The position numbers and the translations under genes are program-made. The notes under the pieces are model-generated. The model saw only the letters and a program-made list of their open reading frames with translations, had not been told where the DNA came from and made no database searches. A DNA stretch of 64,000 nt from Candidatus Babeliales bacterium (GTDB taxonomy: Bacteria; Babelota; Babeliae; Babelales; RVW-14): the NCBI GenBank assembly GCA_019749895.1, contig JAIEPG010000002.1, forward strand, positions 66,244 through 130,243. The letters run 5' to 3'. Position 1 is the first letter of the stretch; each line of letters begins with the position of its first letter. Positions 4,558-52,165 of this stretch are shown one piece after another.

Positions 4558-4568
4558 TTGAGATATTA

Positions 4569-14665: not shown

Positions 14666-14733
14666 ACTGCCCAGCTCCTTCATTTAGCATCAGATTTTTA
14701 TACGTGGTCCAGAGTGTATCAGATGGGTGGTAG

Positions 14734-29389: not shown

Positions 29390-30007
29390 GTGGTGAACAA
29401 GCGGGCGGGATTTTCCCTACTCGAATTACTAATCACGCTGGGCATTTTGGTAGTGGTTATTGGTTTTTCGCTACCCCGCTTTTCATTTTTTACCAACATA
29501 ATTTTGAATCACGAACTTGACCGACTGTTTATGGTTTGCTCATACCTGCAACAAAAAGCTATTGCTACTCACCAACCACAAACATTATCTTTTGATATTC
29601 AAAACAATCAGTACAGCTACCTGCACCACAACAAACCGCACACATTTAATTTGTCTGGTTCACTCAAATTTGGCTCACTGCCCAAAACCAAGGGCCCACC
29701 AGCATGGCCAAAAAATATTGTAAAAACGCCGGTAACGTTTCAGCCTGCACAAAAGGCAGTCTTCTTTCCTGACGGCAAAGTAAGCCCAGGAACCGTTTAT
29801 ATTGTTGATAAAGGCCAAAAAATAATGGGCGCTTTAACCTGTGCAATCTCTGAGGTATGCTACATAAGAAAGTATCGTTACAACAACAATCAATGGCAGC
29901 TGGTGCCAACAGGCAAAAAAACTTACCATGATAAAGTGGCTACGCCGCGCAGCGCTCAGTTTGATAACCGGCCTGGTTATCACGTTGCTGATGGTGCAAA
30001 ACAGTAA
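29390..30007 (+). CDS. type IV pilin-like pseudopilin (GspH/FimT-like)
   Basis: Prepilin leader and N-methylation motif KRAG|FSLLELLITLGILVVVIGFSL. GTG start with AAGGAG upstream. The last 80 nt overlap the next ORF. Confidence 0.75.
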   Translation: MVNKRAGFSLLELLITLGILVVVIGFSLPRFSFFTNIILNHELDRLFMVCSYLQQKAIATHQPQTLSFDIQNNQYSYLHHNKPHTFNLSGSLKFGSLPKTKGPPAWPKNIVKTPVTFQPAQKAVFFPDGKVSPGTVYIVDKGQKIMGALTCAISEVCYIRKYRYNNNQWQLVPTGKKTYHDKVATPRSAQFDNRPGYHVADGAKQ

Positions 30008-32696
30008 AAATATTAACCAACTCTTTCTTGCAAAGCTTACCGAGTTTTTGCAAAAAGAATGGCATGCAACTATTGTTATCAATTCCAGCTCGTTTAATTT
30101 TTTTACCAGCTCAATTGTTTTAAACCAAGGTTCTATAACTTCAACCAAACATACCGACTGTCGCTGGGGTTTTGAAAAAGGGAAAATTTATATCAGTCCA
30201 TTCGAGCTTTTGTTGCACAAAAAAATCTGCTTGTACTTAACGTTTTATAATGTTTCAGGCAGCACTGGCTTTACCGGCAACTCTCCAGACATACTTGATC
30301 ATCTCAATAATATTTTTGAAACAAAATCTGACGATCTTAAAGTGAGCCCACGCGCTATCACGCTCCATCACCTCGTTATTGACACTGCTCTGGGAGGCAT
30401 ACCGCTCCACGCAGAAATTGAGGGTACGTTTGAACTAAAAAAAAGCAAACTTGCCAACAAAGAAAGCAAATGGGACGGACAACTGACTACACAAGCAGGT
30501 AGCGTTACGGTCAACAACAAACAGCTAATAAAAAGCATCAAAGGGACATCAACGTTTGGCAAGCACAAGCGCGATGCGCTCTGGACAATTAATGCCCAAC
30601 ACCACATTGAAACACATTTAGACGAACATACGCACGACGTACACGGCACCTGCTCATGCGACAAACAAGAGATAACAGTTGTCAGCGAGCAACAAAAACT
30701 TGCTGTCAAACTAAACCACACAGCAGAAAAATTTTTAATTACGGGTAACCTGCCACTTGCATTGACCCAGCGCTGCGCCACTTTTTTTGCCAATGATACG
30801 TTACCAGCACCAACTGAAACAGTACAAGGCCTATGCACACTGGACCTGACAGTTGACTACACACACCACGCAACCGGTAGCATTACGGCAAAAAATATTC
30901 AGTACAAAGATTTTATTGTTGAGCAATGCGCATGCACTAACATAGAGCTCAACGAAAAAAATCTATCAACCAATGTACACATTCACGTATCGCCAACTAT
31001 TGGACTTGATGGCACTATTGCGTGGGACCTACAACGCAAGATAGGCTCACTGGCCTGCTCAAACAAGCAACAACTACAAATTTCTTCATCACCTGGCCAA
31101 CTAGAAGCTGGCTGGGTTATAAGCCCTGGCAGCTGCACACTTGAAGCAACCATTACCATGCCCTTTTCGTGCACCGGCACCTACATCTGCACACTGCATC
31201 ACGAGCTAGTTGACCAATTATTATCACTATGCGGTACCTGGCAGATGGACAACCAAGAACTGAATATTGAAGGCACAGCCAACAATGATTCATATGTAAT
31301 TCAAGCCCGCAGTACACCAAAGCCACACATTTCAAACATTGTTTACAAAAAAAATAATACCACCCCAGTTGTCAGCATGCATACTCAGCCCGAAAGTATG
31401 GTTTTGGCTGGCAGTATTTACTATCCATTTATTCAATCACTGCTCAGTCAACAATGCAAACGGCTTATTTTAGGAAGCAAAAACTTTTTACAGGTGAGCG
31501 TTAACCAAAAAAATTTAGAAGAAATTACCGGCTCGGTCAGCCTTGAAACAGGGAAATTTTATATTCCAGAAAGCAGAAATCTTATTGAAAAACTTGCCAG
31601 CAACTTTGCCATTTACCCACACAGCAAAAAGATTGTGCTCAGCGACAATGTGCTGGGATTTTGCAAAGGAAGCATAAGCTGTCCGCAAGCAACATTAACA
31701 TTTAATGATAACTACCACCTCAACTTTGTGCACGCACCAATTCAGATCGATAATTTATTTGTGAACTGGAAAAAAGATTTTTATGGATTCATTGACAGCA
31801 GCTTGCTGTTACTTAAATTTCCCGGCTCACCTGCCCATGCTTCAGGCAACATTGTTTTAAAAAAATCGTTACTGAAAAATAATATCTTTTCAGAAGAAAC
31901 CAATACGCGCTTTTTTTTACCGGCCAATCCGCTTGCTCAGCACAATCAAACAATTGATGTAGACCTGCGTATTGGCAACGAAATACCGGTAAAAATTGTA
32001 ACACCATCGCTAGAAACTACCGCTCATTTAGATTTGCATGTGCAGTACCAACAGCAAAACGTAGCTCACTTGCCACACGTTAACGGCTCAATTACGCTAG
32101 ACAATGGCTTTATAAAATTTTTACGCAACAAGCTATTTATTGAATACGGCAAGATACAATTTGTTACCGCACATGCTAACGACCCATTAATCGATTTAGT
32201 TGCAAAAAATAGAATTAATAAGTACATGATTAACCTGCAAGTGACAGGCTCTTTGCAAAAACCAAATATTGTTTTAGAATCGGCTCCTGTGCTGACCGAA
32301 GAGCAAATTTTGGGACTACTGCTGGCCGGCTCAGAAAATGCAACACTGCAAGCCGACCTGCCAAGTATGATTATGCAAAACCTGCACAACATTGTTTTGG
32401 GCAGCAAAGCAGTAATGCCAAAAGCTACTTCGTTTTTTGAAAAAGTTGCACGACCGTTTAAGTACGTACAAATTTCACCAAACTTTACCGACCAAACAGG
32501 CCGAGGCGGCATTCGTGGTACTATCTCAATTGATTTAAACAAACAAATACACGCGCAGCTACAAAAGAATTTTAACTTGCAAGATGATTTTGCTTTCCAA
32601 GTTGAGTACTTTCTTTCCGACGACGTTAACCTAAAAGTGGTTAAAGATCAGCGCGGTGACCTTGGGTCTGAAGTTGAAGTAAGATTTAAATTTTGA
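29928..32696 (+). CDS. TamB/AsmA-like translocation and assembly module protein
   Basis: N-terminal membrane anchor MIKWLRRAALSLITGLVITLLMV. A long beta-rich body follows. The C-terminal DUF490-like block is NGSITLDNGFIKFLRNKLFIEYGKIQF..DPLIDLVAKNRINKYMINLQVTGSLQKPNIVLESAPVLTEEQILGLLLAGS. Confidence 0.75.
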   Translation: MIKWLRRAALSLITGLVITLLMVQNSKNINQLFLAKLTEFLQKEWHATIVINSSSFNFFTSSIVLNQGSITSTKHTDCRWGFEKGKIYISPFELLLHKKICLYLTFYNVSGSTGFTGNSPDILDHLNNIFETKSDDLKVSPRAITLHHLVIDTALGGIPLHAEIEGTFELKKSKLANKESKWDGQLTTQAGSVTVNNKQLIKSIKGTSTFGKHKRDALWTINAQHHIETHLDEHTHDVHGTCSCDKQEITVVSEQQKLAVKLNHTAEKFLITGNLPLALTQRCATFFANDTLPAPTETVQGLCTLDLTVDYTHHATGSITAKNIQYKDFIVEQCACTNIELNEKNLSTNVHIHVSPTIGLDGTIAWDLQRKIGSLACSNKQQLQISSSPGQLEAGWVISPGSCTLEATITMPFSCTGTYICTLHHELVDQLLSLCGTWQMDNQELNIEGTANNDSYVIQARSTPKPHISNIVYKKNNTTPVVSMHTQPESMVLAGSIYYPFIQSLLSQQCKRLILGSKNFLQVSVNQKNLEEITGSVSLETGKFYIPESRNLIEKLASNFAIYPHSKKIVLSDNVLGFCKGSISCPQATLTFNDNYHLNFVHAPIQIDNLFVNWKKDFYGFIDSSLLLLKFPGSPAHASGNIVLKKSLLKNNIFSEETNTRFFLPANPLAQHNQTIDVDLRIGNEIPVKIVTPSLETTAHLDLHVQYQQQNVAHLPHVNGSITLDNGFIKFLRNKLFIEYGKIQFVTAHANDPLIDLVAKNRINKYMINLQVTGSLQKPNIVLESAPVLTEEQILGLLLAGSENATLQADLPSMIMQNLHNIVLGSKAVMPKATSFFEKVARPFKYVQISPNFTDQTGRGGIRGTISIDLNKQIHAQLQKNFNLQDDFAFQVEYFLSDDVNLKVVKDQRGDLGSEVEVRFKF

Positions 32697-33208
32697 AGAT
32701 CATCCTCATCAATCATGCTCAAAAGTTCATCCGGTGATTTTTCTTCAATTTTTTCTTGTGCTTCAGATTTTTGAGGTTGTTTTGCCGCAACGTTTAATTT
32801 TTTCTCTTTTTCTAAAAGTTTTTTTTCTTCTTCAGCCAAAAAACTGGTACGTGCTTTTTCTTGCTCTAAGCGTGCTTGAGCACGAGAAAGCTCTTGCTGA
32901 CTTTGTGCAAGCGCTTGTTTAAGGTGCACAACCTCTTGCTGCAACGCCTGTGCCTCTTGCGTTTGCTTTGCTATCTGAGCAGCAAGCTCTTCTCGCTTTT
33001 GAACAGCAGATTTTGCTTTTTTGTACAACTGATCAACATGATCAAGAATTCTGTACACTTTTGGCTGCGCCTCTGGAAAAGCTTGGCGAATAGCTACCAA
33101 TTCGTCACCAACTTTTTTGTACACACTCGCTATTTTTTCTGCGTTTAGACTGACAAGCGGCAATATAACAGGAACAAGCGACCACACAACTAAGCGATAT
33201 ATCTTCAT
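32648..33208 (-). CDS. exported coiled-coil hypothetical protein
   Basis: N-terminal hydrophobic segment MKIYRLVVWSLVPVILPLVSLNA. Q/E/A/K-rich heptad-like region. The 3' end overlaps the convergent TamB-like gene by 49 nt. Confidence 0.55.
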   Translation of the reverse strand: MKIYRLVVWSLVPVILPLVSLNAEKIASVYKKVGDELVAIRQAFPEAQPKVYRILDHVDQLYKKAKSAVQKREELAAQIAKQTQEAQALQQEVVHLKQALAQSQQELSRAQARLEQEKARTSFLAEEEKKLLEKEKKLNVAAKQPQKSEAQEKIEEKSPDELLSMIDEDDLQNLNLTSTSDPRSPR

Positions 33209-34170: not shown

Positions 34171-34827
34171 TTACAGTAAACTTTTTTTGTTCAGCAAAGC
34201 CCAATCTTGGTCAAATTTTTCTATGCCCTTGAGTGTTAATGGATGCACTACTGATTCAGCCAAAACCGCTGGCGGCAAGGTTACCACATCGGCACCCACA
34301 GCCATCACCGCATTCCAATGATCAACCGTGCGAATTGAAGCTGCCAAAATTTTACTGCTCAGATCATACTCATGCACAATGTGCATTGCATCACTCACCA
34401 AGCCAATGCCATTGCCTCCAACATCTTCAAGCCTGCCAACAAATGGCGAAATGTAGGTTACGCCAAGCTTGGCAACTAACAAGACTTGAACGGGCGAAAA
34501 AATCAACGTTATATTAAGCTTAATGCCTTCGTGTGCCAAACGAGCAATGACAGGCAAATACTCTTTGGCAAAAGGTATTTTGACAACTACATTTGGTGCC
34601 AACTGCGCAATTTCAAGCGCTTGCTTGTACACCGCCTCTGGCTCTTTTTCAACAACTTCAATACTCACATCGCCTTTCACTATGCGGCAGATGTCGAGCA
34701 GTACCTCTTTTGAATTTTGACCTTCTTTGCTCAGCGTGCTTGGGTTGGTAGTAACGCCGTCAATAATGCCGGTTGCTGCCCACTCTTTAATTAAATCACG
34801 ATTTGCCGTATCAATAAAAATTTGCAT
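34171..34827 (-). CDS. transaldolase family 3B / fructose-6-phosphate aldolase
   Basis: MQIFIDTANRDLIKEW..IDGVTTNPS, the Schiff-base Lys context VVVKIP, and ISPFVGRLED. Size 218 aa. Confidence 0.9.
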   Translation of the reverse strand: MQIFIDTANRDLIKEWAATGIIDGVTTNPSTLSKEGQNSKEVLLDICRIVKGDVSIEVVEKEPEAVYKQALEIAQLAPNVVVKIPFAKEYLPVIARLAHEGIKLNITLIFSPVQVLLVAKLGVTYISPFVGRLEDVGGNGIGLVSDAMHIVHEYDLSSKILAASIRTVDHWNAVMAVGADVVTLPPAVLAESVVHPLTLKGIEKFDQDWALLNKKSLL

Positions 34828-34841: not shown

Positions 34842-35303
34842 CTAAAATGGAAACATTAACATGCCGTCACCACCAAAACCATCAGCTCCAGGCGAGGCAT
34901 CATCTTCACGTTCTTCTTTTGCCAGAAAAAAATCGACCCGGTAACCACTTGACAGGTAATAATAAGGCTTTGACGGGTCAAGCTTATAAAGTACCAGTGT
35001 TTTCAGATTAAAGGTTATGCTTATATCAACACAGTCACCATCTTGCACACACTCTTGCACATACGCCTCAGAAATATTGGCTCTTCTTGACCAGAAGCAA
35101 GAACTTTTGTTTATTAAGAAAAAGCCGTGCTGAAGATCTACAATATCTCTCTTAATTTCTTCACCAGAACGAACCAATTCCTCTCCTTTTGTATCACTGC
35201 CAAAATAAAGTTCCAGGCCCGTTTTGTTTCGAAACGTTACTTCTGCTTGCAACGGCAAGGCACACAACAGCATCATCAATGAAAATATTATTTGTTTATT
35301 CAT
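34842..35303 (-). CDS. small exported protein, tandem family member 1 of 10
   Basis: ATG at 35303 (MNKQIIFSLMMLLCALPLQA). It is followed by EVTFRNKTG. The tail is EEREDDASPGADGFGGDG. It starts 2 nt after the upstream stop. Confidence 0.65.
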   Translation of the reverse strand: MNKQIIFSLMMLLCALPLQAEVTFRNKTGLELYFGSDTKGEELVRSGEEIKRDIVDLQHGFFLINKSSCFWSRRANISEAYVQECVQDGDCVDISITFNLKTLVLYKLDPSKPYYYLSSGYRVDFFLAKEEREDDASPGADGFGGDGMLMFPF

Positions 35304-35730
35304 CGCCACTCTCCTCATCATACTCATGACCAGAACCATCGTCTTCTTCTGAAGATTCGCTCAGCTGGCCTACACTAAAAAACGCCTGTTCTCCTGTTGT
35401 GTTACTTGTCAAACACACGTTATATGATTCTTCGTCAAACGTTACGGTAAAAGCATTACCTTCTTGCTTTAGTTCTTCTACACATTCAGGAGAAATAGTG
35501 GCCTTGCCAATATCAGGCAACACAACAACAAACCCATCCTGAAAATCTGCATATGAAAAAAACTTTCTCTCTTTGCCGTCATGATGCATCAAACCAATTA
35601 TAAGGCGCCCATTTGTCTGATTAAAAAAAGTAACCTTGTCATGCACAACCTGATCGGGAGCGTTACCAGCACCCCACACAGAAAAACTCATCAAACAAAA
35701 AACAACCAATAATCCTGCCAATTTTTTCAT
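35296..35730 (-). CDS. small exported protein, tandem family member 2 of 10
   Basis: MKKLAGLLVVFCLMSFSVWG. Core motif VTFFNQTN. Acidic tail SESSEEDDGSGHEYDEESGDE. Confidence 0.65.
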   Translation of the reverse strand: MKKLAGLLVVFCLMSFSVWGAGNAPDQVVHDKVTFFNQTNGRLIIGLMHHDGKERKFFSYADFQDGFVVVLPDIGKATISPECVEELKQEGNAFTVTFDEESYNVCLTSNTTGEQAFFSVGQLSESSEEDDGSGHEYDEESGDE

Positions 35731-35749
35731 ACACTATTTCCTTTCATTA

Positions 35750-36430
35750 TCACCGACATTTTTTGCAATCACACACGTAACTTTGCAGCCTCATTCGGGC
35801 AAACTCTTGCTCTAAAATTTTTTCTTCTTCGTGCGGACCAACAATGTATCTCATGGCTCGTTGCCTTTGCTTGCGCTCCTTGCAACGCAAACGCTTAGCC
35901 TCTTGCAATTCACGCAATCGAGCTTCACATTTCAAACGTTCTTGCTCTTCATGCCGCCGTGCCGCCTCTGCAGCCGCCTGTGCAGCTATCAGTGCCTCTG
36001 CAGCGCTATTGTGCGCACACACCGTCAACTCATCATGTCCATAGATAAGCTTGGTAGGAAAATACCATCTGCAGCGCAATTGATCACTCACCGGCTCATA
36101 CTCCTCAATCATGAGTACAAGAGCGTTATATGAAAGACTAATTTTGTAGCCATAATCACCAATCTGCGAACACATCTCAGGCGTTAGGGTAACTTTTACG
36201 GCAACATCTCCCTCTATAAAAAACGTACATCCATGCCTAAAAGAAGCAACTAGGTAGCAACAACTACAACCCGATTCCAAAATAGTCTGGTTGTAATGAA
36301 AAAAGCAGCTATTTTCTTTGGGAAAGCAGATCGTTATAAAATTGCTTGTATCATTTCTAAACTCAACAACGCCATGCACCGGAAGCAAAAGAACGAACAA
36401 AAAGAAAACCAAGATGTATATTTTTTTCAT
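35750..36430 (-). CDS. small exported protein, tandem family member 3 of 10 (basic coiled-coil/Cys-rich tail variant)
   Basis: MKKIYILVFFLFVLLLPVHG. Core motif VVEFRNDTS. Many Cys residues. The C-terminal part is EAARRHEEQERLKCEARLRELQEAKRLRCKERKQRQR..CDCKKCR. Confidence 0.65.
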   Translation of the reverse strand: MKKIYILVFFLFVLLLPVHGVVEFRNDTSNFITICFPKENSCFFHYNQTILESGCSCCYLVASFRHGCTFFIEGDVAVKVTLTPEMCSQIGDYGYKISLSYNALVLMIEEYEPVSDQLRCRWYFPTKLIYGHDELTVCAHNSAAEALIAAQAAAEAARRHEEQERLKCEARLRELQEAKRLRCKERKQRQRAMRYIVGPHEEEKILEQEFARMRLQSYVCDCKKCR

Positions 36431-36435
36431 AATTC

Positions 36436-36912
36436 TTATTCGTCGTCAGAAAGTTCTCCGTCAAAACCGTCCAGCTCAACAAGATTCAGAATCCACGTAC
36501 CACCAGCCGTCTGATTATGAATATGCAGCGTCATATCGTTTAAAGAAAAATGAAAGGCATAGGTATGTCCATTCACAAACTCACTTCTCAATTTTTCACA
36601 ACTCAGCATCGTACCGTCATACTTAACCTCTATGGCCGCATTCGGAAACATCGCATAATGATTCTCTTCCCAACCAAAGCTAATCTGACCACCATTGGGG
36701 GTTAATTCATTGTGAGCAACCCACTCACCTGGGCTAATTTCACCATAGTGTAATTTTCGCGAACCATCGGCATTCAAAAAAAAGTACATGGTACAACCAC
36801 TGTTATTTTTCAGATCAACTGAACGCCATTCTTCTTCTGCTATTGGCATATTGATAGCAACCAATTGACCAAACAATGCATAACTTAAAACTGCAAGACG
36901 CATCATATTCAT
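36436..36912 (-). CDS. small exported protein, tandem family member 4 of 10
   Basis: MNMMRLAVLSYALFGQLVA. Core motif SVDLKNNSG. Tail VELDGFDGELSDDE. Confidence 0.6.
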   Translation of the reverse strand: MNMMRLAVLSYALFGQLVAINMPIAEEEWRSVDLKNNSGCTMYFFLNADGSRKLHYGEISPGEWVAHNELTPNGGQISFGWEENHYAMFPNAAIEVKYDGTMLSCEKLRSEFVNGHTYAFHFSLNDMTLHIHNQTAGGTWILNLVELDGFDGELSDDE

Positions 36913-36941
36913 GCTTTTACTCCGTTACCCTGTTAAAAATT

Positions 36942-37430
36942 TTATTCAGCGCCTTCCCCATCTTCTTCTCCAGAAGAACTTTCAAAACCCTCTTCATCTG
37001 AAGCTTCCAGCGCATCTACATCAACTTCATCTCCCATTTTATCGGCTATATTTCCAAAAATCAGTGCTCCATCAACACGGATACCAAAAGAAGAGGCCTC
37101 GAGACTAAATTCGAGCAGATGCATTCTTTCATGCTGCAAAACAGACCTCAAGACATCACAACAATAAATGTCTTCTTCAGCAAACACATACCATAAACTT
37201 TCTGGATCTTGCATTGCTGCCTCATCCCAAGAAACATCTTGTTGTTGGCCAGAAAAAATCTCCACCACCTGGTTACTATTTGAATCTAATAAACACGTCA
37301 TGTTGTAAGGAGAAGAATTATACAACGTCACCAAGGTTTGCCCACCACCAAAACCAGGACCTTGTGCAGCAAAAAGAGGACCCATAAAAAAGGTACAAAA
37401 AAATCCAAGTTTTAATAATTTCATAAACAC
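36942..37430 (-). CDS. small exported protein, tandem family member 5 of 10
   Basis: MFMKLLKLGFFCTFFMGPLFAA. Core motif LVTLYNSSP. Tail DEVDVDALEASDEEGFESSSGEEDGEGAE. Confidence 0.65.
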   Translation of the reverse strand: MFMKLLKLGFFCTFFMGPLFAAQGPGFGGGQTLVTLYNSSPYNMTCLLDSNSNQVVEIFSGQQQDVSWDEAAMQDPESLWYVFAEEDIYCCDVLRSVLQHERMHLLEFSLEASSFGIRVDGALIFGNIADKMGDEVDVDALEASDEEGFESSSGEEDGEGAE

Positions 37431-37438
37431 TTTCTACG

Positions 37439-37942
37439 TTAAAGTAAACCTAGCCAATGACTTGGTACAGGCTGCCAAATCACCAGCTCAGGTTCATTAT
37501 CATCAACCATTTGATCCGACCATCCATAATCAGAAGTTTGCACTAAAAATTCTGCATAGTCAGTTGTTATTCGTAATTTTTTGTTTTTTTGAAAAAAACA
37601 AAGATTGTAAGTTTGGCCATGCAAAAAATTTCCCGCAGCAAAACTACACGAAAAAAGATCTAATCCCACATACATATGAAAGGTTACTACCGACTCAGTC
37701 AAAGAGCCTTGCTCCCAAGAAACATCAAGAATGTTACCCGGCTTAATACAAGATTTTTTTGCAGTAGATTGCAACAAAAAAATAATGGATTGGTCGATAC
37801 TGCTATTTTTTAAGGCAATGGAAATTTTTGGCCGAGCAACTCTTGGCCTCAAGGCGCGTGCCCGGCGATATTGAGCACTGGCACAACAAAAATTATCAAA
37901 GACAACAACACACAAGATTAACAAAGTAGCTACTCGTTTCAT
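37439..37942 (-). CDS. small exported protein, tandem family member 6 of 10
   Basis: MKRVATLLILCVVVFDNFCCASA. Basic linker. Core motif ISIALKNSS. Tail DQMVDDNEPELVIWQPVPSHWLGLL. Confidence 0.6.
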   Translation of the reverse strand: MKRVATLLILCVVVFDNFCCASAQYRRARALRPRVARPKISIALKNSSIDQSIIFLLQSTAKKSCIKPGNILDVSWEQGSLTESVVTFHMYVGLDLFSCSFAAGNFLHGQTYNLCFFQKNKKLRITTDYAEFLVQTSDYGWSDQMVDDNEPELVIWQPVPSHWLGLL

Positions 37943-37986
37943 AAGAGCTCTCCTTGCAATTGTGCACGTACTAAGAAATTAATTAA

Positions 37987-38484
37987 TTATTTACCAGTCA
38001 TAGAAAGCTCTTCTTGCAACACAGAACTTTCAAGTACTATTTCAGACTCTTCCTGACCACCATCAACTTCGTCTTCATCAAGCTCTTGATAACTTTCTAC
38101 TGCTTGTACTGCAAAACCAAGGCCATCTGCGCTATTTCTAATTTCTAATCTTTTTGATTCATGAGAAAAATTAAGTACATAGTGCTTATCTTGCTTAAGT
38201 TCTTTTCTGGCAAAAAAGCACGCAAACAAAGAATAATCTTCCGTTTGAACATCAAAAAAAACATTGGGACAGCCGGTATTACGTTCCTGCCAACGTATCT
38301 CTTTTGAACGCCCAGGTACCAATTCAATAACTTCTTGTTCTTTGGTAGGATCTATATAAAAATAAAAAACAACGGTTTTATCAACATTTTCAAGCGTAAT
38401 TTTTTGTGTTTCAGCTTCCCCCGCCTGCAGCACACAACCAAACACACTTAAAACAAAAAACGCCGTAAATAATAAAAGCCTCAT
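37987..38484 (-). CDS. small exported protein, tandem family member 7 of 10
   Basis: MRLLLFTAFFVLSVFGCVLQA. Core motif KITLENVDK. Tail YQELDEDEVDGGQEESEIVLESS. Confidence 0.65.
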   Translation of the reverse strand: MRLLLFTAFFVLSVFGCVLQAGEAETQKITLENVDKTVVFYFYIDPTKEQEVIELVPGRSKEIRWQERNTGCPNVFFDVQTEDYSLFACFFARKELKQDKHYVLNFSHESKRLEIRNSADGLGFAVQAVESYQELDEDEVDGGQEESEIVLESSVLQEELSMTGK

Positions 38485-38495
38485 AAAAGCCCCCC

Positions 38496-39284
38496 TTAAA
38501 ATACACTATCATCATCTGAAAACAAACTACGCAGTTGCTCATTAACATCACTGTCCGACTCTTGATCGTCTTGTGCCGCTTCACCAGAAGACTCTACAGC
38601 AGATGGAATGAGTGGAGCAAGACCGTCATCAAGCAGATCATCATCTTCTTCTCCCTCTGAAATAAAAAGATAATCGCCACCAAAAAGCTCAAAAAAATCA
38701 GGTGCTTGAGAACTACCTACTTGATCGTCTTGAACTTCAAGACAGAGCTCTCCAGATAAAGGGACTTTTGGTTGATCAATCGCAGGTTCCAGCCCTTCTT
38801 GGTCGTCAGGTTTTACTTCGCCAAAAGCTTCTTGATCAGGCTCTTTTTGTGCTTCTGGTTCTGCAGAGCCTTCAACGTCTCCTTCTTTATACTGATCTAT
38901 CCAATATTCCCTGTCACCTATTTTTATTCCCAACTTAAACTCATCTTCGTTGTAAGAAAAAACACAGGGATCTTGGTTGATAAATATCGACTTTGGTAAA
39001 ACGTGTTTAATGGCATCATCACCCGCACCAACCCAAGCAATTATATCTTCGGGTTGCAACCAAGAAAGAGAAATGCCCACTAAAAGATTATCTTTTGCAG
39101 ATTTATTGGGAACCGTACTTTTTGACCAGATGCACACGCGCTTGCTCCAACCAAAGGACTCACGCATAACATTAATAACATAGTCAGTATTATTAGCAAA
39201 AAGCACACGATCTGGAGAATTGTTTGAAGCAAAAAGTACGTTTGAAAGGCTTAAAAAAAGCATTTTCACAACGGCCATTTTCAT
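38496..39284 (-). CDS. small exported protein, tandem family member 8 of 10 (long acidic tail)
   Basis: MKMAVVKMLFLSLSNVLFA. Core motif RVLFANNTD. The D/E/Q-rich tail is about 130 aa (EGEEDDDLLDD, AAQDDQESDSDVNE). A 4-nt ATGA overlap joins it to the upstream gene. Confidence 0.65.
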   Translation of the reverse strand: MKMAVVKMLFLSLSNVLFASNNSPDRVLFANNTDYVINVMRESFGWSKRVCIWSKSTVPNKSAKDNLLVGISLSWLQPEDIIAWVGAGDDAIKHVLPKSIFINQDPCVFSYNEDEFKLGIKIGDREYWIDQYKEGDVEGSAEPEAQKEPDQEAFGEVKPDDQEGLEPAIDQPKVPLSGELCLEVQDDQVGSSQAPDFFELFGGDYLFISEGEEDDDLLDDGLAPLIPSAVESSGEAAQDDQESDSDVNEQLRSLFSDDDSVF

Positions 39285-39802
39285 TTAAAAGCCCCTATTG
39301 GAACGGTGCCTATAATCCAAAATCGTTCACCATCTTCATGCTCGTGGTGTTTTTCGTCATCACTACAAGTAGGATCACCACAATCAATTTCATGATCACC
39401 CTGATCGCCCCAGCCATCGTCAAACAAATCAGCTTGACTTTGCGGTGCTAAATAGTGCACGCCCTGCCCTTTAAGAGAAAAACTTAGAGCACATTGAGAC
39501 TCATTAAATGAAAGATTGCACCAGCTGTCTGCTTCTAAACCCACAAGATTTTCTGGCTCAACCGAAAAAATATGCAAGGCTTCATTTTGACCATTTTTAT
39601 AACAAGAAATGGAAAAACCATTGTGTAATGCTTCCAGAGAACAAGAAGCACTTCCTCTGCTCATTATTAAACTCATTGCACCATTACTAAAATCGAGTCG
39701 CATTCGATAATGTGCACTCTTATTAAAAAAAATAATATCGTTGGCAAAAGCTGACTGAACAAAAATGTTTAGCAAGATAATCATCACTAATTTAATTTTC
39801 AT
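39281..39802 (-). CDS. small exported protein, tandem family member 9 of 10
   Basis: MKIKLVMIILLNIFVQSAFA. Core motif NDIIFFNKSA. Tail DDGWGDQGDHEIDCGDPTCSDDEKHHEHEDGERFWIIG. Confidence 0.65.
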   Translation of the reverse strand: MKIKLVMIILLNIFVQSAFANDIIFFNKSAHYRMRLDFSNGAMSLIMSRGSASCSLEALHNGFSISCYKNGQNEALHIFSVEPENLVGLEADSWCNLSFNESQCALSFSLKGQGVHYLAPQSQADLFDDGWGDQGDHEIDCGDPTCSDDEKHHEHEDGERFWIIGTVPIGAFK

Positions 39803-39911
39803 AATCTAAGAGCCTTTTTAAAATTGTTATTCATAAACAACACTAATCTTTTTATAAAATTAAAATCAATGATCTACAACCTTGTGTTTAAAAAAATAGT
39901 CTAAAAATAAA

Positions 39912-39966
39912 GCGAGCCTGAGTTTATTGGAATTTTTTAAAATTCACTATAAAAACTCAAGCCCGC
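39912..39966 (-). terminator. repeated long hairpin (terminator-like), copy 1
   Basis: GCGAGCCTGAGTTT..AAACTCAAGCCCGC. On the minus strand the stem contains G-U pairs and TTTATTTTT follows it. It is related in sequence to 40618-40661. Confidence 0.5.
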
Positions 39967-40029
39967 TAAAAATAACTAAAAAAATCTCATCACAAAGCTA
40001 AAAAAACAATCTTATATAAAAATCGTTTT

Positions 40030-40578
40030 TTAACGAGGCAGATAAGCAATGATCCACCATGTTTTTTCTTCTTTTATTTCTTTGTCAGGATTCAAATAAT
40101 CATCCCACCATTTTTCTTCAAGCGCTGCTTGCTCAACGCTTTCATGATCAATCGAATGTAGAACCTCTGCATGCTGCTCTTGTGCACCAGCATCATCTTC
40201 TTCCAAAACTGGTACCCCTGCTATTTCTAGAACACCATGAATATCACGTTTTTGACCATTAACCGACAAACATAAATCATTATTAGATCTTCGCAAAAAG
40301 AAACAACAACTACCTCTATCTCTCAACGATGAAATCAAATCTTGTGTTACTACAAAACGATATCCTATTTCATTAATACGATAAAGCACGGTAAAACCTT
40401 GCTGTATCTGGGTAAAAGAACAACGAATATTTTTTTGAGAGGGTATAAAATGATCTTGATCTGCAATGCTAATTGTTGCTGAATAACGCTTGTCCCAATT
40501 GCGTAAGGTAACAGAACCAACACAAACAGACTGAATAAAAATACCAAAAAACATTACTAAAAATACGTGAATGTTCAC
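40030..40578 (-). CDS. small exported protein, tandem family member 10 of 10
   Basis: MNIHVFLVMFFGIFIQSVCVG. Core motif SVTLRNWDK. Tail LEEDDAGAQEQHAE..EEKTWWIIAYLPR, which shares the W-W-I-I ending with member 9. Confidence 0.6.
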   Translation of the reverse strand: MNIHVFLVMFFGIFIQSVCVGSVTLRNWDKRYSATISIADQDHFIPSQKNIRCSFTQIQQGFTVLYRINEIGYRFVVTQDLISSLRDRGSCCFFLRRSNNDLCLSVNGQKRDIHGVLEIAGVPVLEEDDAGAQEQHAEVLHSIDHESVEQAALEEKWWDDYLNPDKEIKEEKTWWIIAYLPR

Positions 40579-40617
40579 AAAAACCCTTTAGGCAATATCA
40601 TTGTTGAAAAATAAAAA

Positions 40618-40661
40618 ACGAGCCTGAGTTTATTTGAAATGACTACAAAACTCAAGCTCGT
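40618..40661 (-). terminator. repeated long hairpin (leuS terminator), copy 2
   Basis: ACGAGCCTGAGTTT..AAACTCAAGCTCGT is a 14-bp stem with one G-U pair on the minus strand. A T6 run follows it. It lies 33 nt after the leuS stop. Confidence 0.6.
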
Positions 40662-40693
40662 TAAACTATTTCTAATAAAATAAAATCTTCTAA

Positions 40694-43141
40694 CTAGCCT
40701 TTGATGACAAAACTAATTAAGCGATCTTGCACAAAGACCGTTTTAATAAGTTCTTTGTCTTCAAGCCATTTGGCAATCTGTTCTTTGGCAAGTGGCTCTA
40801 CATCAGCCTGCACTAAGCCTTTTGTCAAAAGTATATTGCCACGCAGCTTACCATTAACTTGAATTGCATATTCAACTTGAGAAACATGCGCCAGCTCAGC
40901 GTTGTACGCAGGCCAGGTACACTGTGCCAATTGTTTATTCAACAGCTTTTCAATCAACTCACTGGCAAAATGCGGCACCATAACTGAAAGCGCGGTCAAA
41001 AATTGTTCAAGCATTTCACGGTCGAATTGCAATTTTTGACTCGTCAAATCATTCAAATATTCCATAACAGCCGATACAGCAGTGTTAACTTTAAACGTTT
41101 CCAAGCGTTGTTGGTAATCTTTTAAAAACTGATGGAAGCGTTGTTGCGCAGATTTTTCTGCTTTTTTACCAGCAGGCAACAATGTGCTTTCGGCAGTCAA
41201 AAACAACCACAAGCGATTTAAGAAACTATAAACGCCCCTGATCGATGCCGTTTGCCATTCAGTATCAAGCTCTGGTGGCCCCATAAAAAGCATGTACATA
41301 CGCAGCGTGTCGGCACCCATTTCTTCAACAATTTCGTCCGGGTTAACCACATTGCCTTTAGATTTTGACATTTTTTCAACACGCCCAGAAATGGAGCTCT
41401 TCATACACACCATGCCTTGATTGAACAGTTGTTTAAACGGTTCATCAAATGGCAAGTGACCAAGATCATGCAACACTTTAACATAAAAGCGCGCGTACAA
41501 AAGATGCAAAATGGCATGCTCAATACCGCCAACATACAAATCAACGGGCAACCAATGCTGCATGTCACGCTCACTAAATGGCTTGTCGGTTAAGCCTGGG
41601 TTTGGATAACGCAAGAAATACCAGCATGAACCTGCCCATTGCGGCATAGTGTTAGTTTCTCTCTTTGCTGGTACGCCACATTGTGGACACGGCGTATTAA
41701 CCCATTCAGTAATAGCAGCCAGCGGCGACTCACCGGTTCCCGTTGGTTGATAGCGCTCAACCTCGGGCAACACGATTGGTAATTCATTTTCTGGCACCGG
41801 AACAACACCGCAAACATCGCAATGCACCAGAGGGATAGGCTCACCCCAATAACGTTGGCGCGAGAAAATCCAGTCACGCAAACGGTATGAAACTTTGCGT
41901 TCGGCCAAGCCCTTGTGTTCACAATACTCAATAATTGCCTGACGCACATCACCCGCACGTTTGCCAGCAAACTGGGCCGGGGCCTGCAAAATGCCATGCT
42001 GCATATCGGTATAGCACACTTCTTGGTTTTGTACCTGAGCAGCCAAAACTGGATCTTCAGGGAACAAAACAGGCTTGAGCGGTATGCCGTATTTTTTAGC
42101 AAATTTAAAGTCACGCTCATCGTGCGCAGAGCATTTAACAATGCCAGTCCCATAATCTTTTATGGCAAAACTGGCAACCCAAATTGGCAGGTCACCATTA
42201 CCAACCGGATCAACAATATAGCGACCGGTAAAGATACCTTCGATCTCTTTTTCTTCAAATTTATTTTCATTACGCTTATGAAGTAAGGTTCTGCAATACT
42301 CAAGAACTTCTTTTTCACGCTCGGTACCTGCCAACAATGTCGGCAAAAATGGATGGTCCGGCGCTATAACCACAAACGTATCGGCACCAAAAGCTTCGAA
42401 ATGAGCGTTAAAGGTCTGTAAAGTAAGGTTGGTGTCTTTGACCGGCGCGGTAAAAACTAGCCCCTCACTCTTGCCAATCCAGTTGCTTTGCATAAGCTTA
42501 ACTTTTTCAGGCCACTCAAGCTTTTCAAGGCCTTGAAGCAATTTTTCGGCATAATCGGTAATCCGCAAAACCCATTGACGCACGGGCTTTTGCTCAGTTG
42601 GCGAGCCACAACGCTCACACCCGCCAGCAACAACCTCTTCATTGGCAAGGCCGGTAAGGCACTTTGGGCACCAATTAATGGGCATGCTGTCTTGGTAGGC
42701 AAGACCTGCTTTGTACATTTGCAAAAAGATCCATTGGGTCCATTTGTAGTAAGCAGGATCGGTGGTATCAACCTCTTTGCTCCAGTCGTACATAGAACCA
42801 ATGTAGGCAAGTTGGCGCTTAAAGTTGGCAACGTTGCTGGCAGTACCGCCTTTTGGATGAATTCCTTTTTTAATAGCATCGTTTTCTGCTGGCAGGCCAA
42901 AGGCGTCCCAACCCATTGGATGCAGCACATCGTAACCTTGCAGCCACTTCATGCGGGCATAAACGTCTGAAAACACATAACCCTTCCAGTGGCCCACGTG
43001 GATACCAGACCCGGACGGATAGGGAAACATGTCTAGACAATAAAACTTCTCTTTGGACTGATCATTCTTCATCTTGAAGTAAGGATCTTTTTGCCAAGAA
43101 TTACGCCATTTTTCTTCAACAATCTTAAAATCGTAACTCAT
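40694..43141 (-). CDS. leuS: leucine--tRNA ligase
   Basis: HIGH-type [17 protein letters not shown] motif KMSKSKGN. Zn-like CPKC..CERCG. CP1 editing region present. I prefer the ATG at 43141 ([16 protein letters not shown]) over the GTG at 43159. Confidence 0.95.
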
Positions 43142-43302
43142 CGTTGTGCCCTTGGTCACCGTAAATTGGTGCGTTCTTTAAGTAGCCTTTGCCTACAGCT
43201 TTAGTTGTCCCATTGTAGTCCAAAAGAGAAAAAATGGCCAAAAATAAATCACCTGCCTCTGTCTTCATAGCACTTATTAAAAATAATTACAAATGTGAAT
43301 TA

Positions 43303-43332
43303 TTGACTTTGCAAGCCTGATTTAGCTACCAT
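43303..43332 (+). promoter_or_regulatory. candidate promoter of the C11 peptidase cluster
   Basis: TTGACT-N18-TACCAT. The same TACCATAAA string as at the hicAB promoter follows it. It lies about 70 nt upstream of 43401. Confidence 0.25.
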
Positions 43333-43400
43333 AAAGATAGATAACTATGAATAAGATCGAATAAAAAGGGACTTTCTGATCCTCTGAGGGGGGAATAGTA

Positions 43401-44837
43401 ATGAAGATTTTGGCACGCAACTGTAGACCTATCGTTTCAAATAATAAAAATATTTTTCTATTTGCACTTTTTATTATTTGGGGATCATCAGACGCACAGG
43501 CTATTTCTCGACCAAAAACATCACCTACCCCTCAAATCATTGCTCAAGTCGCCAAGCAACCTGAAGCTGAGTGGACCATGCTTATTTATGCACAAGCCAA
43601 CAATTCGCTGAGCAAATTTGCACACCGCAACTTTGCTGACATGGCAACCATTGGCTCCAACCGAAACCTCAACGTTTTGGTTCAATGGTACCAACCAGGT
43701 CAACAAGGCATTTGGCGCTATCAAATTAATAAAGGTCGCATGGATCTTGATGAATGCATCACACAACCAACTGACGGCAATAAAGCCCAAGACCTTGTTG
43801 ATTCAATGGAATGGGCAGTTAAAAAGTACCCAGCAAAAAAATATTGTCTGATTTTATGGAATCATGGCATGGGAATTGTTGACCCACTGTGGGGTAACTC
43901 GATACAAATGATTCAGCCCAAAATGATGAAAAACAACCCTCGAATCCAAATAGCAGGCCTAACGCAAGCAGCACCAGCGCAGGCAAAATTTCAAAAGATT
44001 GAAAAAAAAACAGCAAAAAATCATCATCGCGGTATTTTATTTAACGAAAATTCTCGTACCTACATGACTAATCAAGTCCTTTCCCAAGCCCTGGAAGAGA
44101 TCAAAACACGCGTACTCAACAATCGCAAAATCGATCTACTCGGTATGGACGCCTGCTTGATGGCAATGATTGAAGTTGGCTACCAAGTTCGTAACTACGC
44201 TGCATACATGGTTGGCTCGCAAGAAGTTGAATTGGCTTCCGGCTGGGCATATCAACCACTCCTACAAAAGCTTACTACAGCTTCACTTACGCCGGCACAG
44301 TTTGCGCAAGAAATAGTTACCAACTACCAAAATCTTTATAAAAACAAAATACAATTTTATACACAATCAGCCATAGATCTTGAAAAAATAGATATGTTAA
44401 AAGATTCTATCGACGCAGTTGTTCACGATATTGCTGTGTGTAAAGAACTTGATCCTGCAAATTTTGCCAATATTATAAAAAAAGCACGTAACAGCTGTAT
44501 TCAGTTTAGTACGCAAAGCTACATCGACCTTCATTCATTTTTTTCTGAAGTTTTAAGCCACATAACCACAACGTATGCCAACCGCGCACAGGCAAAACGC
44601 CTGCACCCGCTTACCAACGCAGTAGCAAAACTCAAAGAATCGCTCGCTCTAAGCATGCAAATATTAGACAGTGTTGTTATTGCCAACACTTCCGGCCGTT
44701 ACCTGTCTAATGTTAAAGGGCTTTCAATTTATTATCCACAAGCCGGAACCGGCATCGACAATTCATACAGCAAAACTGAGTTTGCTCAAGATTCTTCTTG
44801 GCATATATTTTTGCAAAAAATTCTTGCTTTACAGTAG
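43401..44837 (+). CDS. exported clostripain-family (peptidase C11) cysteine protease, paralog 1
   Basis: Family-typical AEWTMLIYAQANNSL. His context LILWNHGMGI. Cys context LLGMDACLMAMIEVGYQ. N-terminal hydrophobic segment IFLFALFIIWGSSDAQA. Confidence 0.8.
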   Translation: MKILARNCRPIVSNNKNIFLFALFIIWGSSDAQAISRPKTSPTPQIIAQVAKQPEAEWTMLIYAQANNSLSKFAHRNFADMATIGSNRNLNVLVQWYQPGQQGIWRYQINKGRMDLDECITQPTDGNKAQDLVDSMEWAVKKYPAKKYCLILWNHGMGIVDPLWGNSIQMIQPKMMKNNPRIQIAGLTQAAPAQAKFQKIEKKTAKNHHRGILFNENSRTYMTNQVLSQALEEIKTRVLNNRKIDLLGMDACLMAMIEVGYQVRNYAAYMVGSQEVELASGWAYQPLLQKLTTASLTPAQFAQEIVTNYQNLYKNKIQFYTQSAIDLEKIDMLKDSIDAVVHDIAVCKELDPANFANIIKKARNSCIQFSTQSYIDLHSFFSEVLSHITTTYANRAQAKRLHPLTNAVAKLKESLALSMQILDSVVIANTSGRYLSNVKGLSIYYPQAGTGIDNSYSKTEFAQDSSWHIFLQKILALQ

Positions 44838-44845
44838 GAAACATT

Positions 44846-46159
44846 ATGAATAGTGGTAAAAAAAAAATAACGCAAATACTGCTTACCATAACACTCCTTA
44901 GCGCATCGTTTGCATCTGCCAAGCGACAACCAGAAGCAGAATGGACGGTTGTTACGTACATTCAGGCCGACAATAGCCTTGCGCCTTTTGCTTTAAAAAA
45001 CATTCAAACCATGCAGCAGGCGGGATTAAAAAATAAAATAAATATTTTAGTACACTGGAACATGCCAGAAAATAAAAAAATTGTACGCTACCTCGTTACC
45101 AAAAATGCACTAATCGAAGATAAAGATATCAAAGTAAAAACTTATGAGGACCATGAAAAAAGCTTAGTTGATACTATGAAATGGGCAGCAACTAACTACC
45201 CTGCAAAAAAATATATGCTTAATTTTTGGAATCATGGTAGCGGCATTATTGACCGCGTTAACTATTTAAAAGGCAGAAGTCAACTTCGCACTCATTGGCT
45301 AGAAACTCCAGGCCTGGAGCAAGAATCAGCATTTCGTGGCATCCTTTATAGCGATACTAACCACACGTATCTAGACAACCAACAACTCGCACGGTCACTG
45401 GAAGCAATCACGCTCACGCTAGGCAAAAAAATTGATGTGATAGGTATGGATGCGTGCTTTATGGCAATGCTAGAAATTGGGTATCAAATTAAAGATTATG
45501 CTAAAGTTTTGGTTGCTTCACAAAACTCAGAACCCGGACGAGGCTGGAATTATGCAGAGTTTTTAAATAAACTCAGCAAAGAACCACATCTGGTTAATGC
45601 ACAAAAACTTGGCAAACATATTGTTAATGCTTACCAAAAACTCTACGCAGGGGATGTTAATTTTTATACACAATCGGCAATCAACTTGCGTGCACTTGAT
45701 CCAATAAAAGAAAATATTAATCAGCTGGTTGCTTGTCTTGAGCATTGCAAAAATTTAAACGAAAAAAAAATTAGAAAAGCTATTCAAACAGCTAGCAACA
45801 TAACCCTCAAATTTCATATGCACGACTTTGTTGACCTTCATTCTTTTTATACTGCTCTGCTGAAAGCAACAAGTAAACGATCTCTCTACGATGCCAGCGA
45901 ACAACGGACAACCACTGGATATACAAAGGCATTGAAAAAGCTTCGGGCAACGCTACAAGAAGGACTTGCCACTATAAACCAAGCGGTATATACCTCAGCA
46001 GCAGCACCAACATACAACCGTGCGCGCGGCATCTCAATTTATTTACCACGAAAAAAAATCCATCATTCCTATCCAAAAACAATGTTTGCTCAAGAAAGCT
46101 TGTGGCTCCATTTTTTAGAAACATTTTTTTGCTCTCAACATGCTGTCACAAGCGAGTAG
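44846..46159 (+). CDS. exported clostripain-family (C11) cysteine protease, paralog 2
   Basis: ATG at 44846 with AGGAA upstream (MNSGKKKITQILLTITLLSASFASA). Motifs AEWTVVTYIQADNSL, FWNHGSGI, VIGMDACFMAMLEIGYQ. Confidence 0.8.
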   Translation: MNSGKKKITQILLTITLLSASFASAKRQPEAEWTVVTYIQADNSLAPFALKNIQTMQQAGLKNKINILVHWNMPENKKIVRYLVTKNALIEDKDIKVKTYEDHEKSLVDTMKWAATNYPAKKYMLNFWNHGSGIIDRVNYLKGRSQLRTHWLETPGLEQESAFRGILYSDTNHTYLDNQQLARSLEAITLTLGKKIDVIGMDACFMAMLEIGYQIKDYAKVLVASQNSEPGRGWNYAEFLNKLSKEPHLVNAQKLGKHIVNAYQKLYAGDVNFYTQSAINLRALDPIKENINQLVACLEHCKNLNEKKIRKAIQTASNITLKFHMHDFVDLHSFYTALLKATSKRSLYDASEQRTTTGYTKALKKLRATLQEGLATINQAVYTSAAAPTYNRARGISIYLPRKKIHHSYPKTMFAQESLWLHFLETFFCSQHAVTSE

Positions 46160-46162
46160 CTC

Positions 46163-47380: not shown

Positions 47381-47485
47381 GCTTTTAATTTCATTATTCA
47401 TCTCAATTCTTGATTACGTATCACCAAGATTTTTACACTTGGCCAGTTGTTCATTATCTTACCAACTGTAATCAAGGAGATGTTT

Positions 47486-52088: not shown

Positions 52089-52165
52089 TGGCGGGGCTGA
52101 CGGGACTCGAACCCGCGACCTTCCGCGTGACAGACGGACGCTCTAACCAACTGAGCTACAGCCCC
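52089..52165 (-). tRNA. tRNA-Asp (anticodon GTC), CCA encoded
   Basis: The minus strand reads GGGGCTGTAGCTCAGTTGGTTAGAGCGTCCGTCTGTCACGCGGAAGGTCGCGGGTTCGAGTCCCGTCAGCCCCGCCA. It has a 7-bp acceptor stem, GCTC/GAGC D stem, TCCGT/GCGGA anticodon stem with loop CTGTCAC, and a GCGGG/CCCGT T stem with TTCGAGT loop. Confidence 0.95.

Follow-up and report, generated by a model that had tools for sequence, protein, structure and literature searches.

A tandem array of predicted exported beta-sandwich proteins between leuS and a transaldolase gene in a Candidatus Babeliales genome

Introduction

Tandem, lineage-specific exported families of host-associated bacteria are known from the chlamydial Pmp proteins and the Borrelia paralogous families, and the cultured Dependentiae are parasites that live inside the cells of amoebae and other protists. 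Members of this phylum have been described as host-dependent intracellular parasites (PMC6561590, PMC4776705), and every TM6 genome examined has conserved components of the type II secretion system (T2SS) (PMC4776705). Signal peptides are found on 44% of the coding sequences of Chromulinavorax destructans, a set that is enriched in ORFans and takes in 78% of the ankyrin proteins as well as C11 peptidases (PMC6561590). Here, we analyze a window of 64,000 nucleotides, by which we mean the whole stretch of DNA examined, from a metagenome-assembled genome (MAG) of Candidatus Babeliales bacterium (Dependentiae/TM6), in which the list of open reading frames (ORFs) places a minus-strand array of ten co-oriented genes, M1 to M10 (34842-40578), between leuS and a transaldolase gene (tal). 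We regard them as ten real genes of a lineage-restricted, predicted exported family whose products are, most likely, host-interaction modules exported by Sec and released by the T2SS, a reading that we put forward with about even confidence.

Results

Each of the ten proteins, annotated at NCBI as 'hypothetical protein' of Candidatus Babeliales bacterium (K2W90_01475, which is M1, to about K2W90_01520), consists of an N-terminus resembling a signal peptide, a phi-T-phi-x-N strand, a beta core of 90–115 amino acids (aa), and a tail. The strand motif is present in 10/10 members (VTFRNKT to VTLRNWD) and contains N-x-S/T in eight of them; the motifs and the positions of the ten minus-strand ORFs are borne out by the ORF list as they had been quoted in a first-pass annotation made from the letters of the sequence. 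All ten N-termini start with a positively charged or neutral segment (that of M10 is devoid of Lys and Arg), continue with a hydrophobic stretch whose 10-residue Kyte-Doolittle maximum is 1.8–3.7, and offer small-x-small sites near residue 19–21. By a simple home-made heuristic of n-, h-, and c-regions (positive n, hydrophobic h, small residues at -3/-1), the N-terminus is signal-peptide-like in 22/22 proteins of this array and of the sister array presented below, R8 being taken from its upstream ATG, and these segments do look like the export signals that the first reading had seen in them. No match to the lipobox [LVI][ASTVI][GAS]C was found at the signal-peptide end of the 22 proteins, where only M7 and R4 come near it (VFGC, VFSC), and a lipoprotein reading was rejected for want of a lipobox. 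The tails of all members other than M3 are 14–129 aa long, with 19–50% Asp/Glu and a net charge of -5 to -36; that of M3 is basic (105 aa, 21% Lys/Arg), set against nine acidic ones, and is probably a coiled-coil. In composition, the acidic tails and the basic Cys-rich tail of M3 are as first described.

We consider the ORFs of the array to be real genes, and reject their reading as spurious ORFs, because they are syntenic in a second genome, their dN/dS is below 1, most of their starts are preceded by Shine-Dalgarno-like motifs, and two members fold confidently or fairly confidently in AlphaFold2. The purine-rich Shine-Dalgarno-like motif lies 6–12 nt 5' of most array starts. The gaps among the lower nine genes (M9 to M1) measure -4 to +44 nt, and M10 sits 115 nt downstream of leuS. 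The start of M1 is most likely ATG 35303 and not that of the longest ORF (165 aa, to 35339), because it is preceded by GAGGAG, the NCBI and Logan calls agree on it, and the relatives R11/R12 agree as well; M2 and M1 therefore overlap by 8 nt, not by the 44 nt that the 165-aa ORF implies. For M5, the start is probably ATG 37424, giving 160 aa.

Pairwise comparison by blastp and phmmer yielded two clear clusters, M4–M7 and M9–M10, the other links being weak. Profiles restricted to the cores, with sequences from both genomes, were aligned by hhalign for groups A (M4–M7), B (M9–M10), CDE (M1–M3), and F (M8). Group CDE was joined to A (E 6.6e-6 over 91 columns, probability 85%) and to B (E 1.1e-4 over 79 columns, probability 57%), and group F gave E 0.01 with A over 82 columns and E 0.0098 with CDE over 64 columns, all four alignments being co-linear; reversed-profile controls gave E 0.05 or worse over short stretches. 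Upon shuffling of the columns, the observed scores of A-CDE (35.0 vs 9.6 ± 1.4), B-CDE (28.9 vs 10.1 ± 2.4), and A-F (18.9 vs 11.1 ± 2.2) were each reached in 0/60 shuffles, that of CDE-F (19.0, with a shuffled maximum of 20.5) was reached in 1/60, and the direct links A-B and B-F did not rise above these controls. On this sequence evidence, nine members are homologous, connected through the CDE hub, and the membership of M8 is probable but marginal, its basis being the marginal profile scores and an AlphaFold2 model built from the family alignment. The single family expected by the first-pass annotation from a comparison of hidden Markov models (HMMs) is thus firm within M4–M7, M1–M3, and M9–M10 and only marginal for M8.

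AlphaFold2 predicts the M7 core, from an alignment of seven sequences, as nine beta strands with a predicted local distance difference test score (pLDDT) of 92.5 and a predicted template modeling score (pTM) of 0.83. The model of mature M8, from a family alignment of 17 sequences, has an N-domain of nine strands (pLDDT mostly 72–95, with 58–63 at residues 41–60) and a tail (residues 116–243) that is disordered and undocked (pLDDT 33–58). A common beta fold had been anticipated as well, and the two models agree with it in their nine strands each, that of M8 having been built with the family alignment; tail disorder is modeled for M8 only and is suggested by composition for the other members. 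Foldseek searches of M7 against the PDB and BFVD and of M8 against the PDB returned nothing below E 0.018. The best PDB match of M7 was 2mca (E. rectale YP_002937094.1; E 0.018, TM 0.57, 96 columns, 17% identity), transthyretin-like matches in the PDB had TM 0.40–0.49 and E 0.023–0.18, and the M7 matches to transthyretin-like proteins, the PepT2 extracellular domain, VHL-beta, and the XRCC4 head together spanned TM 0.36–0.49. Nothing fell below E 0.019 for M7 in BFVD or below E 0.17 for M8 in the PDB, where 2mca was not recovered. The proteins 2mca (Eubacterium rectale, nuclear magnetic resonance structure), transthyretin/HIUase, the PepT2 extracellular domain, the VHL beta domain, and the XRCC4 head are likewise all-beta sandwiches of ~100 residues, but the E values are 0.018 or worse, identity is 6–17%, and the M8 model finds other top matches. 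As modeled, the likeness to 2mca and to transthyretin-type sandwiches would be one of fold class only, and the core a generic Greek-key beta-sandwich without a close structural relative in the PDB or BFVD.

Searches of Pfam-A 2025, NCBIfam 20.0, PHROGs v4, and PADLOC-DB 2.0 gave no significant match (best E 0.003–0.15, far below gathering scores). No already described domain was found in these curated libraries, and the first view of a locally expanded, undescribed family stands. Against PDB sequence profiles, groups A and CDE gave 0 matches at E up to 10. A word-indexed search of 5.8 billion proteins, with M7, all 22 members, and CDE as queries, found only the two MAGs and one ENA contig of 651 bp, whose protein is 78% identical to M2 and is a third-lineage orthologue; the whole-family profile (22 sequences) retrieved from the 5.8 billion proteins seven array members only. 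As the whole-family HMM was less sensitive than a subgroup HMM in a leave-out test, the group A profile was used to scan 1.84 billion cluster representatives exhaustively with HMMER; this gave six matches, all of them array members. Single-protein scans with M2 in JGI metagenomes and with M8 in IMG/VR found no relatives. The family is new as a family, being without a named domain or a structural neighbor and of very narrow distribution; its kind is familiar, that of a tandemly expanded, lineage-specific exported family in a host-dependent bacterium of a phylum known for signal-peptide-bearing ORFans.

The second MAG (GCA_019746485.1, locus tags K2X40_...) holds twelve small genes, R1 to R12, between leuS and tal, so that the ORFs are kept in a close relative as a syntenic 12-gene array with dN/dS below 1, an outcome in line with the first-pass annotation. 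The flanking genes of the two genomes share 89–100% aa identity (tal 96%, leuS 97%). Seven pairs are clear orthologues with 76–88% aa identity, namely M10/R1 (76%), M9/R2 (82%), M8/R3, M7/R4 (82%), M6/R5 (81%), M5/R6 (80%), and M2/R10 (88%). M4 shares ~30% aa identity with R7/R8, with saturated synonymous divergence (dS), M3 is only 25% identical to R9, the gene in the corresponding position, and has a tail of the same type, and M1 is 31–34% identical to its nearest relatives R11/R12. Because dS is saturated in the divergent pairs (at least 1.2 or undefined) vs 0.27–0.57 in the seven orthologue pairs, M1, M3, and M4 and their sister counterparts are old paralogues, kept differently in the two genomes or exchanged, and not fast-evolving orthologues. 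By blastn, nucleotide identity is 88% from the C11 genes to M5. Two hypervariable islands (Table 1) are separated by a conserved M2 block, and in M1, the 5' end encoding the signal peptide and the 3' end are conserved around a divergent middle.

A block of ~2.5 kb (window 43000-45500 vs ~3000-5450 of the sister locus L002) is 100% identical at the nucleotide level between both MAGs. It takes in the first C11 gene and the 5' portion of the next, together with the divergent promoter region and the beginning of leuS; the DNA around it is 72–92% identical, and dS is 0 in the block vs 0.24–0.76 in the other flanking genes. It reflects either recent recombination between the lineages or an artefact of MAG assembly or binning.

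Estimates of dN/dS (omega) between the window and the sister genome by the Nei-Gojobori method are 0.17–0.47 for the whole array genes and 0.03–0.18 for the flanking genes. The pooled value is 0.19 for the beta cores (range 0.12–0.26; 0.13 for M2 and 0.18 for M10) and 0.47 for signal peptides and tails, the tails being 41–81% identical, with indels. What is conserved in the tails consists of hydrophobic/aromatic islands: DFFELFGGDYLFISEGEEDDDLLDDGL and NEQLRSLFSDDDSVF in M8, with the aligned patterns DFFELFGGDYLFISEGEEDD..LLDDGL and NEQLRSLFSDDD.VF, the pattern EPELVIWQPVPS.WL.LL in M6, RFWIIG in M9, and WWI in M10. The array had been called fast-diverging, which holds for the paralogues (10–37% identical within the array) but not for the orthologous cores (80–93% identical, core omega 0.19). 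The array changes mainly by gene turnover in the two hypervariable islands, plus tail evolution; these comparisons point to birth-and-death of whole genes, or their replacement in segments, the kept cores being under purifying selection.

The closest metagenomic relatives were found with tal as anchor, their tal being 59–64% identical. One (L086) has leuS and then tal after a gap of 136 bp; another (L087) has between them a single gene encoding 329 aa (2528-3517), which looks like a glycosyltransferase, so that the leuS-tal intergenic site accepts different cargo. With LeuRS as anchor among GTDB representatives, which included neither of the two source MAGs, the nearest genome (L004) has a LeuRS identity of only 57%, with tal 8.6 kb further on. 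Its leuS is followed by four small ORFs (6475-8355), three with signal peptides and two that are clear paralogues of each other, which are unrelated to the array family by hmmsearch and hhalign. As distant relatives have leuS beside tal or another gene between the two, the array is a lineage-specific insertion, and the leuS-tal interval is a variable site, an insertion hot-spot of which the array is the lineage-specific occupant. Upstream of leuS (336-3105), the same L004 locus encodes three paralogous signal-peptide proteins, two of the three with collagen-like G-x-T/G-P-T repeats.

Two copies of an intrinsic-terminator-like hairpin, ~700 nt apart, flank M10 (Table 1). They share the stem AGCGRGCTTGAGTT / AAACTCAGGCTCG, followed by a T-run, occupy the same positions in the sister genome, and are both stable when folded as coding-strand RNA. 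The hairpin earlier placed between M10 and M9 is thus real by its folding energy and z-score and its U-run, and the ATGA overlap (39281-39284), the 14 nt that separate M1 from the transaldolase gene, and the eight N-x-S/T motifs had been read correctly. The two copies suggest that the leuS terminator was copied when M10 was inserted or duplicated. Transcription probably proceeds in three units, leuS, M10 alone, and M9 to M1 plus tal, tal being the probable last gene of the latter. A scan for consensus promoters gave fewer matches than in shuffled sequence.

Table 1. Positions in the window of the array genes, their boundary genes, the hairpins, and the regions that differ from the sister genome
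Feature	Coordinates	Strand	Description
tal (transaldolase/FSA gene)	34171..34827	-	PF00923; 14 nt 3' of M1; other boundary of the insertion site, conserved
M1	34842..35303	-	153 aa; signal peptide, VTFRNKT, and beta core, then an acidic tail with GDGMLMFPF at its end
Hypervariable island 2	34871..35218	.	M1 core, unalignable to the sister, which has R11 and R12 there (blastn)
M2	35296..35730	-	144 aa; shortest core of all; tail of 24 aa, 46% D/E
M3	35750..36430	-	226 aa; beta core, then basic tail ending in the CDCKKCR Cys cluster
Hypervariable island 1	35827..37015	.	M5 tail, M4, and most of M3; sister holds R7, R8, R9; no nucleotide similarity (blastn)
M4	36436..36912	-	158 aa; group A; tail end LSDDE
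M5	36942..37430	-	162 aa if started at GTG 37430
M6	37439..37942	-	167 aa; tail ends in the conserved stretch EPELVIWQPVPSHWLGLL
M7	37987..38484	-	165 aa; structural reference; core a nine-strand beta-sandwich (model)
M8	38496..39284	-	262 aa; beta core and acidic disordered tail of 129 aa with two conserved islands
M9	39281..39802	-	173 aa; group B; opens the tightly packed nine-gene run
Terminator-like hairpin and U-run	39903..39970	-	Intrinsic-terminator-like; 3' of M10; dG -26.7 kcal/mol, z -6.3
M10	40030..40578	-	182 aa; GTG start; group B
Second copy of the hairpin	40609..40665	-	3' of leuS; dG -23.9 kcal/mol, z -6.4
leuS (leucyl-tRNA synthetase)	40694..43159	-	Upstream boundary of the insertion site, conserved

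Discussion

We infer export, release from the cell, and host targets along the following lines. The array proteins would carry a cleavable Sec-type signal peptide, be exported by Sec, and fold in the periplasm, from where they could be released across the outer membrane via the T2SS conserved in the phylum, or in vesicles. Once released, they would work as a set of small modules that bind targets of the host (a protist) or close to the envelope, with tails that presumably serve as flexible appendages bearing short motifs. The window itself encodes a T2SS/type IV pilus ATPase (12959-14683, minus strand; T2SSE and MshEN domains) and a prepilin-type N-methylation-motif protein (29390-30007, plus strand), as well as TamB, an OmpA-family protein, four C11 peptidases, an ankyrin-repeat protein, and three proteins with DSP-PTPase domains; signal-peptide-like N-termini are present in most of the window's putative effector-like proteins. 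This content agrees with the published accounts of the phylum (PMC4776705, PMC6561590). A bolder version, to which we give little credence, sees the array as a diversified repertoire of small secreted beta-sandwich binders renewed by cassette-like swaps, with tails carrying eukaryote-type motifs to host trafficking or autophagy. Swapping of cassettes between conserved signal-peptide and 3'-end sequences is proposed because such a pattern is seen for M1 and the M4/M3 island. Were it true, such a repertoire of swapped binders would represent an effector architecture of a new type, dependent on Sec and the T2SS, in a phylum apparently without classical injection systems.

Several observations weigh against release and host interaction. 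Export was judged by the home-made heuristic alone, the signal peptides are of the signal peptidase I (SPase-I) type with nothing that specifies transit through the outer membrane, and the members are devoid of eukaryote-like domains and of significant structural matches to any known binder or effector. Since the family alignment went into the M8 model, that model is no independent evidence for a shared fold. Nine members are apparently co-transcribed with tal, a housekeeping gene. The orthologous cores are conserved (omega 0.12–0.26) and not positively selected, with no arms-race signature at a binding surface, and the short motifs of the tails (LC3-interacting-region-like motifs, acidic dileucine, CK2 sites) are sporadic in a regular-expression scan, as chance predicts. 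Residence in the periplasm or envelope fits these data equally well.

Such residence, including a role towards the nearby C11 peptidases, is the main rival explanation. The proteins might remain there as inhibitors, chaperones, or partners of the cell's own secreted hydrolases, notably the C11 peptidases, or provide generic polyanionic buffering or a holdase activity; we hold this rival as a whole to be unlikely. Small beta-sandwich or beta-barrel inhibitors encoded beside cysteine proteases are known, staphostatins and chagasin/ICP being examples, and the four C11 paralogues (43401-48700) lie on the opposite strand across leuS, ~2.8 kb from M10; SPase-I type signal peptides that specify no outer-membrane transit and cores under purifying selection are also what this explanation predicts. 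Against this rival, the chagasin set NPTTG, GxGG, and RPW/F is absent (only a chance GFGG occurs, in signal peptides or tails), no protease inhibitor figures in the top 50 Foldseek matches, the copy numbers are unpaired (10–12 array genes vs four peptidase genes), and the array and the C11 genes belong to separate transcription units with leuS and two terminators between them. Moreover, C. destructans also secretes C11 peptidases (PMC6561590), yet the searches recovered the family from no other organism.

We give less probability to three further readings: a pilus-like assembly, immunity proteins, and glycoproteins. The paralogues could be subunits of a surface fiber or hetero-oligomer in which a hydrophobic C-terminal segment is donated as a strand into the neighbor's sandwich: tandem Ig-like/beta-sandwich genes with signal peptides are typical of pilus operons, and hydrophobic C-terminal segments borne on acidic linkers (WWIIAY, FWIIGTV, LVIWQPV, YLFISEG, GMLMFPF) are the best-conserved parts of several tails. 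We find this very improbable, for neither usher, chaperone, sortase, nor type-V-pilus protease was found among the genes flanking the array (leuS followed by the four C11 genes in one direction and, in the other, tal, PLD, TamB, and a coiled-coil protein of 186 aa), M2, M4, M5, and M7 (4/10) have purely acidic or polar tails, the M3 tail is a basic coiled-coil, the tail of the M8 model is undocked (pLDDT 33–58), and the sole fimbrial Foldseek match has E 0.9. A shade less credible still is an orphan array of periplasmic immunity proteins directed against interbacterial peptidoglycan- or membrane-targeting toxins. Immunity-gene islands are made of small, highly divergent, tandem genes with signal peptides, which the array resembles, and DSP-PTPase domains, linked by Pfam to polymorphic toxin systems, lie ~22 kb away; however, no toxin, Rhs, VgrG, contact-dependent inhibition, or type VI secretion gene is adjacent to the array, no match to defense or immunity models was obtained, and immunity proteins do not typically have long acidic disordered tails. 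Bacteria that depend on a host and live inside its cells, as those of this phylum are described to do (PMC6561590, PMC4776705), may also meet fewer contact-dependent competitors. As to the N-x-S/T motif, the first-pass annotation had speculated on glycosylation, through entry of the proteins into a eukaryotic secretory pathway or, we may add, a bacterial N-glycosylation system, and this we consider next to excluded. The motif does end strand 1 in 8/10 window members and 15/22 proteins overall, but position +2 from the conserved Asn is variable (Ser/Thr in 15 of the 22 proteins, Asp in five, Gly in one), Asp at this position would abolish the sequon, and R12 has a His for the Asn. The bacterial PglB sequon is D/E-x-N-x-S/T, and Asp/Glu at -2 is absent from every motif of the family; we know of no route from the bacterial periplasm into the lumen of the host endoplasmic reticulum. 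The glycosylation site was rejected on these grounds. The conserved Asn closes strand 1 of the M7 model, right before the hairpin loop, and Ser, Thr, and Asp are residues able to cap an Asx-type turn. We thus prefer to see it as part of a predicted structural turn of the Asx type rather than as a glycosylation site, because it ends strand 1, position +2 tolerates Asp, and no acidic residue stands at -2.

The neighborhood of the array holds further proteins of similar make-up. The C11 paralogues (43401-48700, plus strand) are tandem, divergent from leuS, and signal-peptide-like at the N-terminus in 4/4 cases; for the three that were set against the sister genome, identity is 100%, 94%, and 79%. 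A protein of 186 aa (32648-33208, minus strand) without a Pfam match has a signal peptide, a coiled-coil-like middle rich in Gln, Glu, and Lys, and an acidic tail, an architecture that echoes the coiled-coil tail of M3; it is 89% conserved in the sister genome, and at the 3' end its gene shares 49 nt with the convergent TamB gene. Further away, three DSP-PTPase (PTP-SAK / Tc-R-P) proteins with apparent signal-peptide-like N-termini (3725-4543, 4569-11036, and 11981-12592, minus strand) are candidate host-directed phosphatases, the second of which (2155 aa) combines the DSP-PTPase with a PPDK_N ATP-binding domain. This same protein shares with those encoded at 1183-3555 and 14758-16155 (minus strand; 790 and 465 aa, both without a Pfam match) a motif G/N-P-L-x-x-L-x-x-x-L-x-x-L-K-x-K after the signal peptide, which looks like another paralogous N-terminal module. 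The ankyrin-repeat protein (48720-49337, plus strand; 205 aa) has a signal-peptide-like N-terminus, a pattern reported for Dependentiae (PMC6561590). The sole Rfam match in the window is a tRNA gene (52092-52165, minus strand).

The Dependentiae are widespread and almost uncultured parasites of protists, and their published genomes encode many proteins with signal peptides and without homologues. The locus turns ten 'hypothetical proteins' into a defined family: its fold is confidently predicted, its domain plan is that of signal peptide, sandwich, and disordered tail, its insertion site is mapped, and the way in which it evolves can be measured. It offers a concrete set of candidates for secretome and localization experiments. 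Should the proteins prove periplasmic, the interest of the result would be only local; in any event, the array is a clean case of a confidently predicted beta-sandwich without detectable relatives in current sequence and structure libraries.

Compared with known systems, the array resembles chagasin/ICP (MEROPS I42) and the staphostatins in that small exported beta proteins are encoded with cysteine peptidase genes (here C11) nearby, but the defining motifs of chagasin/ICP are absent, no structural match was obtained, and the transcription unit is separate from that of the peptidases. With the chlamydial Pmp and Borrelia paralogous families it has in common local tandem expansion, very low identity among paralogues, differences in gene content, and export signals; it is unrelated to them in sequence and structure, its proteins are much smaller and without autotransporter or lipoprotein features, and their cores are under clear purifying selection. 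The closest likeness is to the ORFan secretome of the Dependentiae (PMC6561590, PMC4776705), with which the array shares the phylum, Sec-type signal peptides, the lack of homologues elsewhere, the co-occurrence with ankyrin, C11-peptidase, and phosphatase proteins bearing signal peptides, and the conserved T2SS as presumed exit. Those two studies cover the class of proteins and not the array family, whose tandem layout of ten to twelve genes, shared beta-sandwich, and acidic tails are, as far as the libraries and literature searched show, new.

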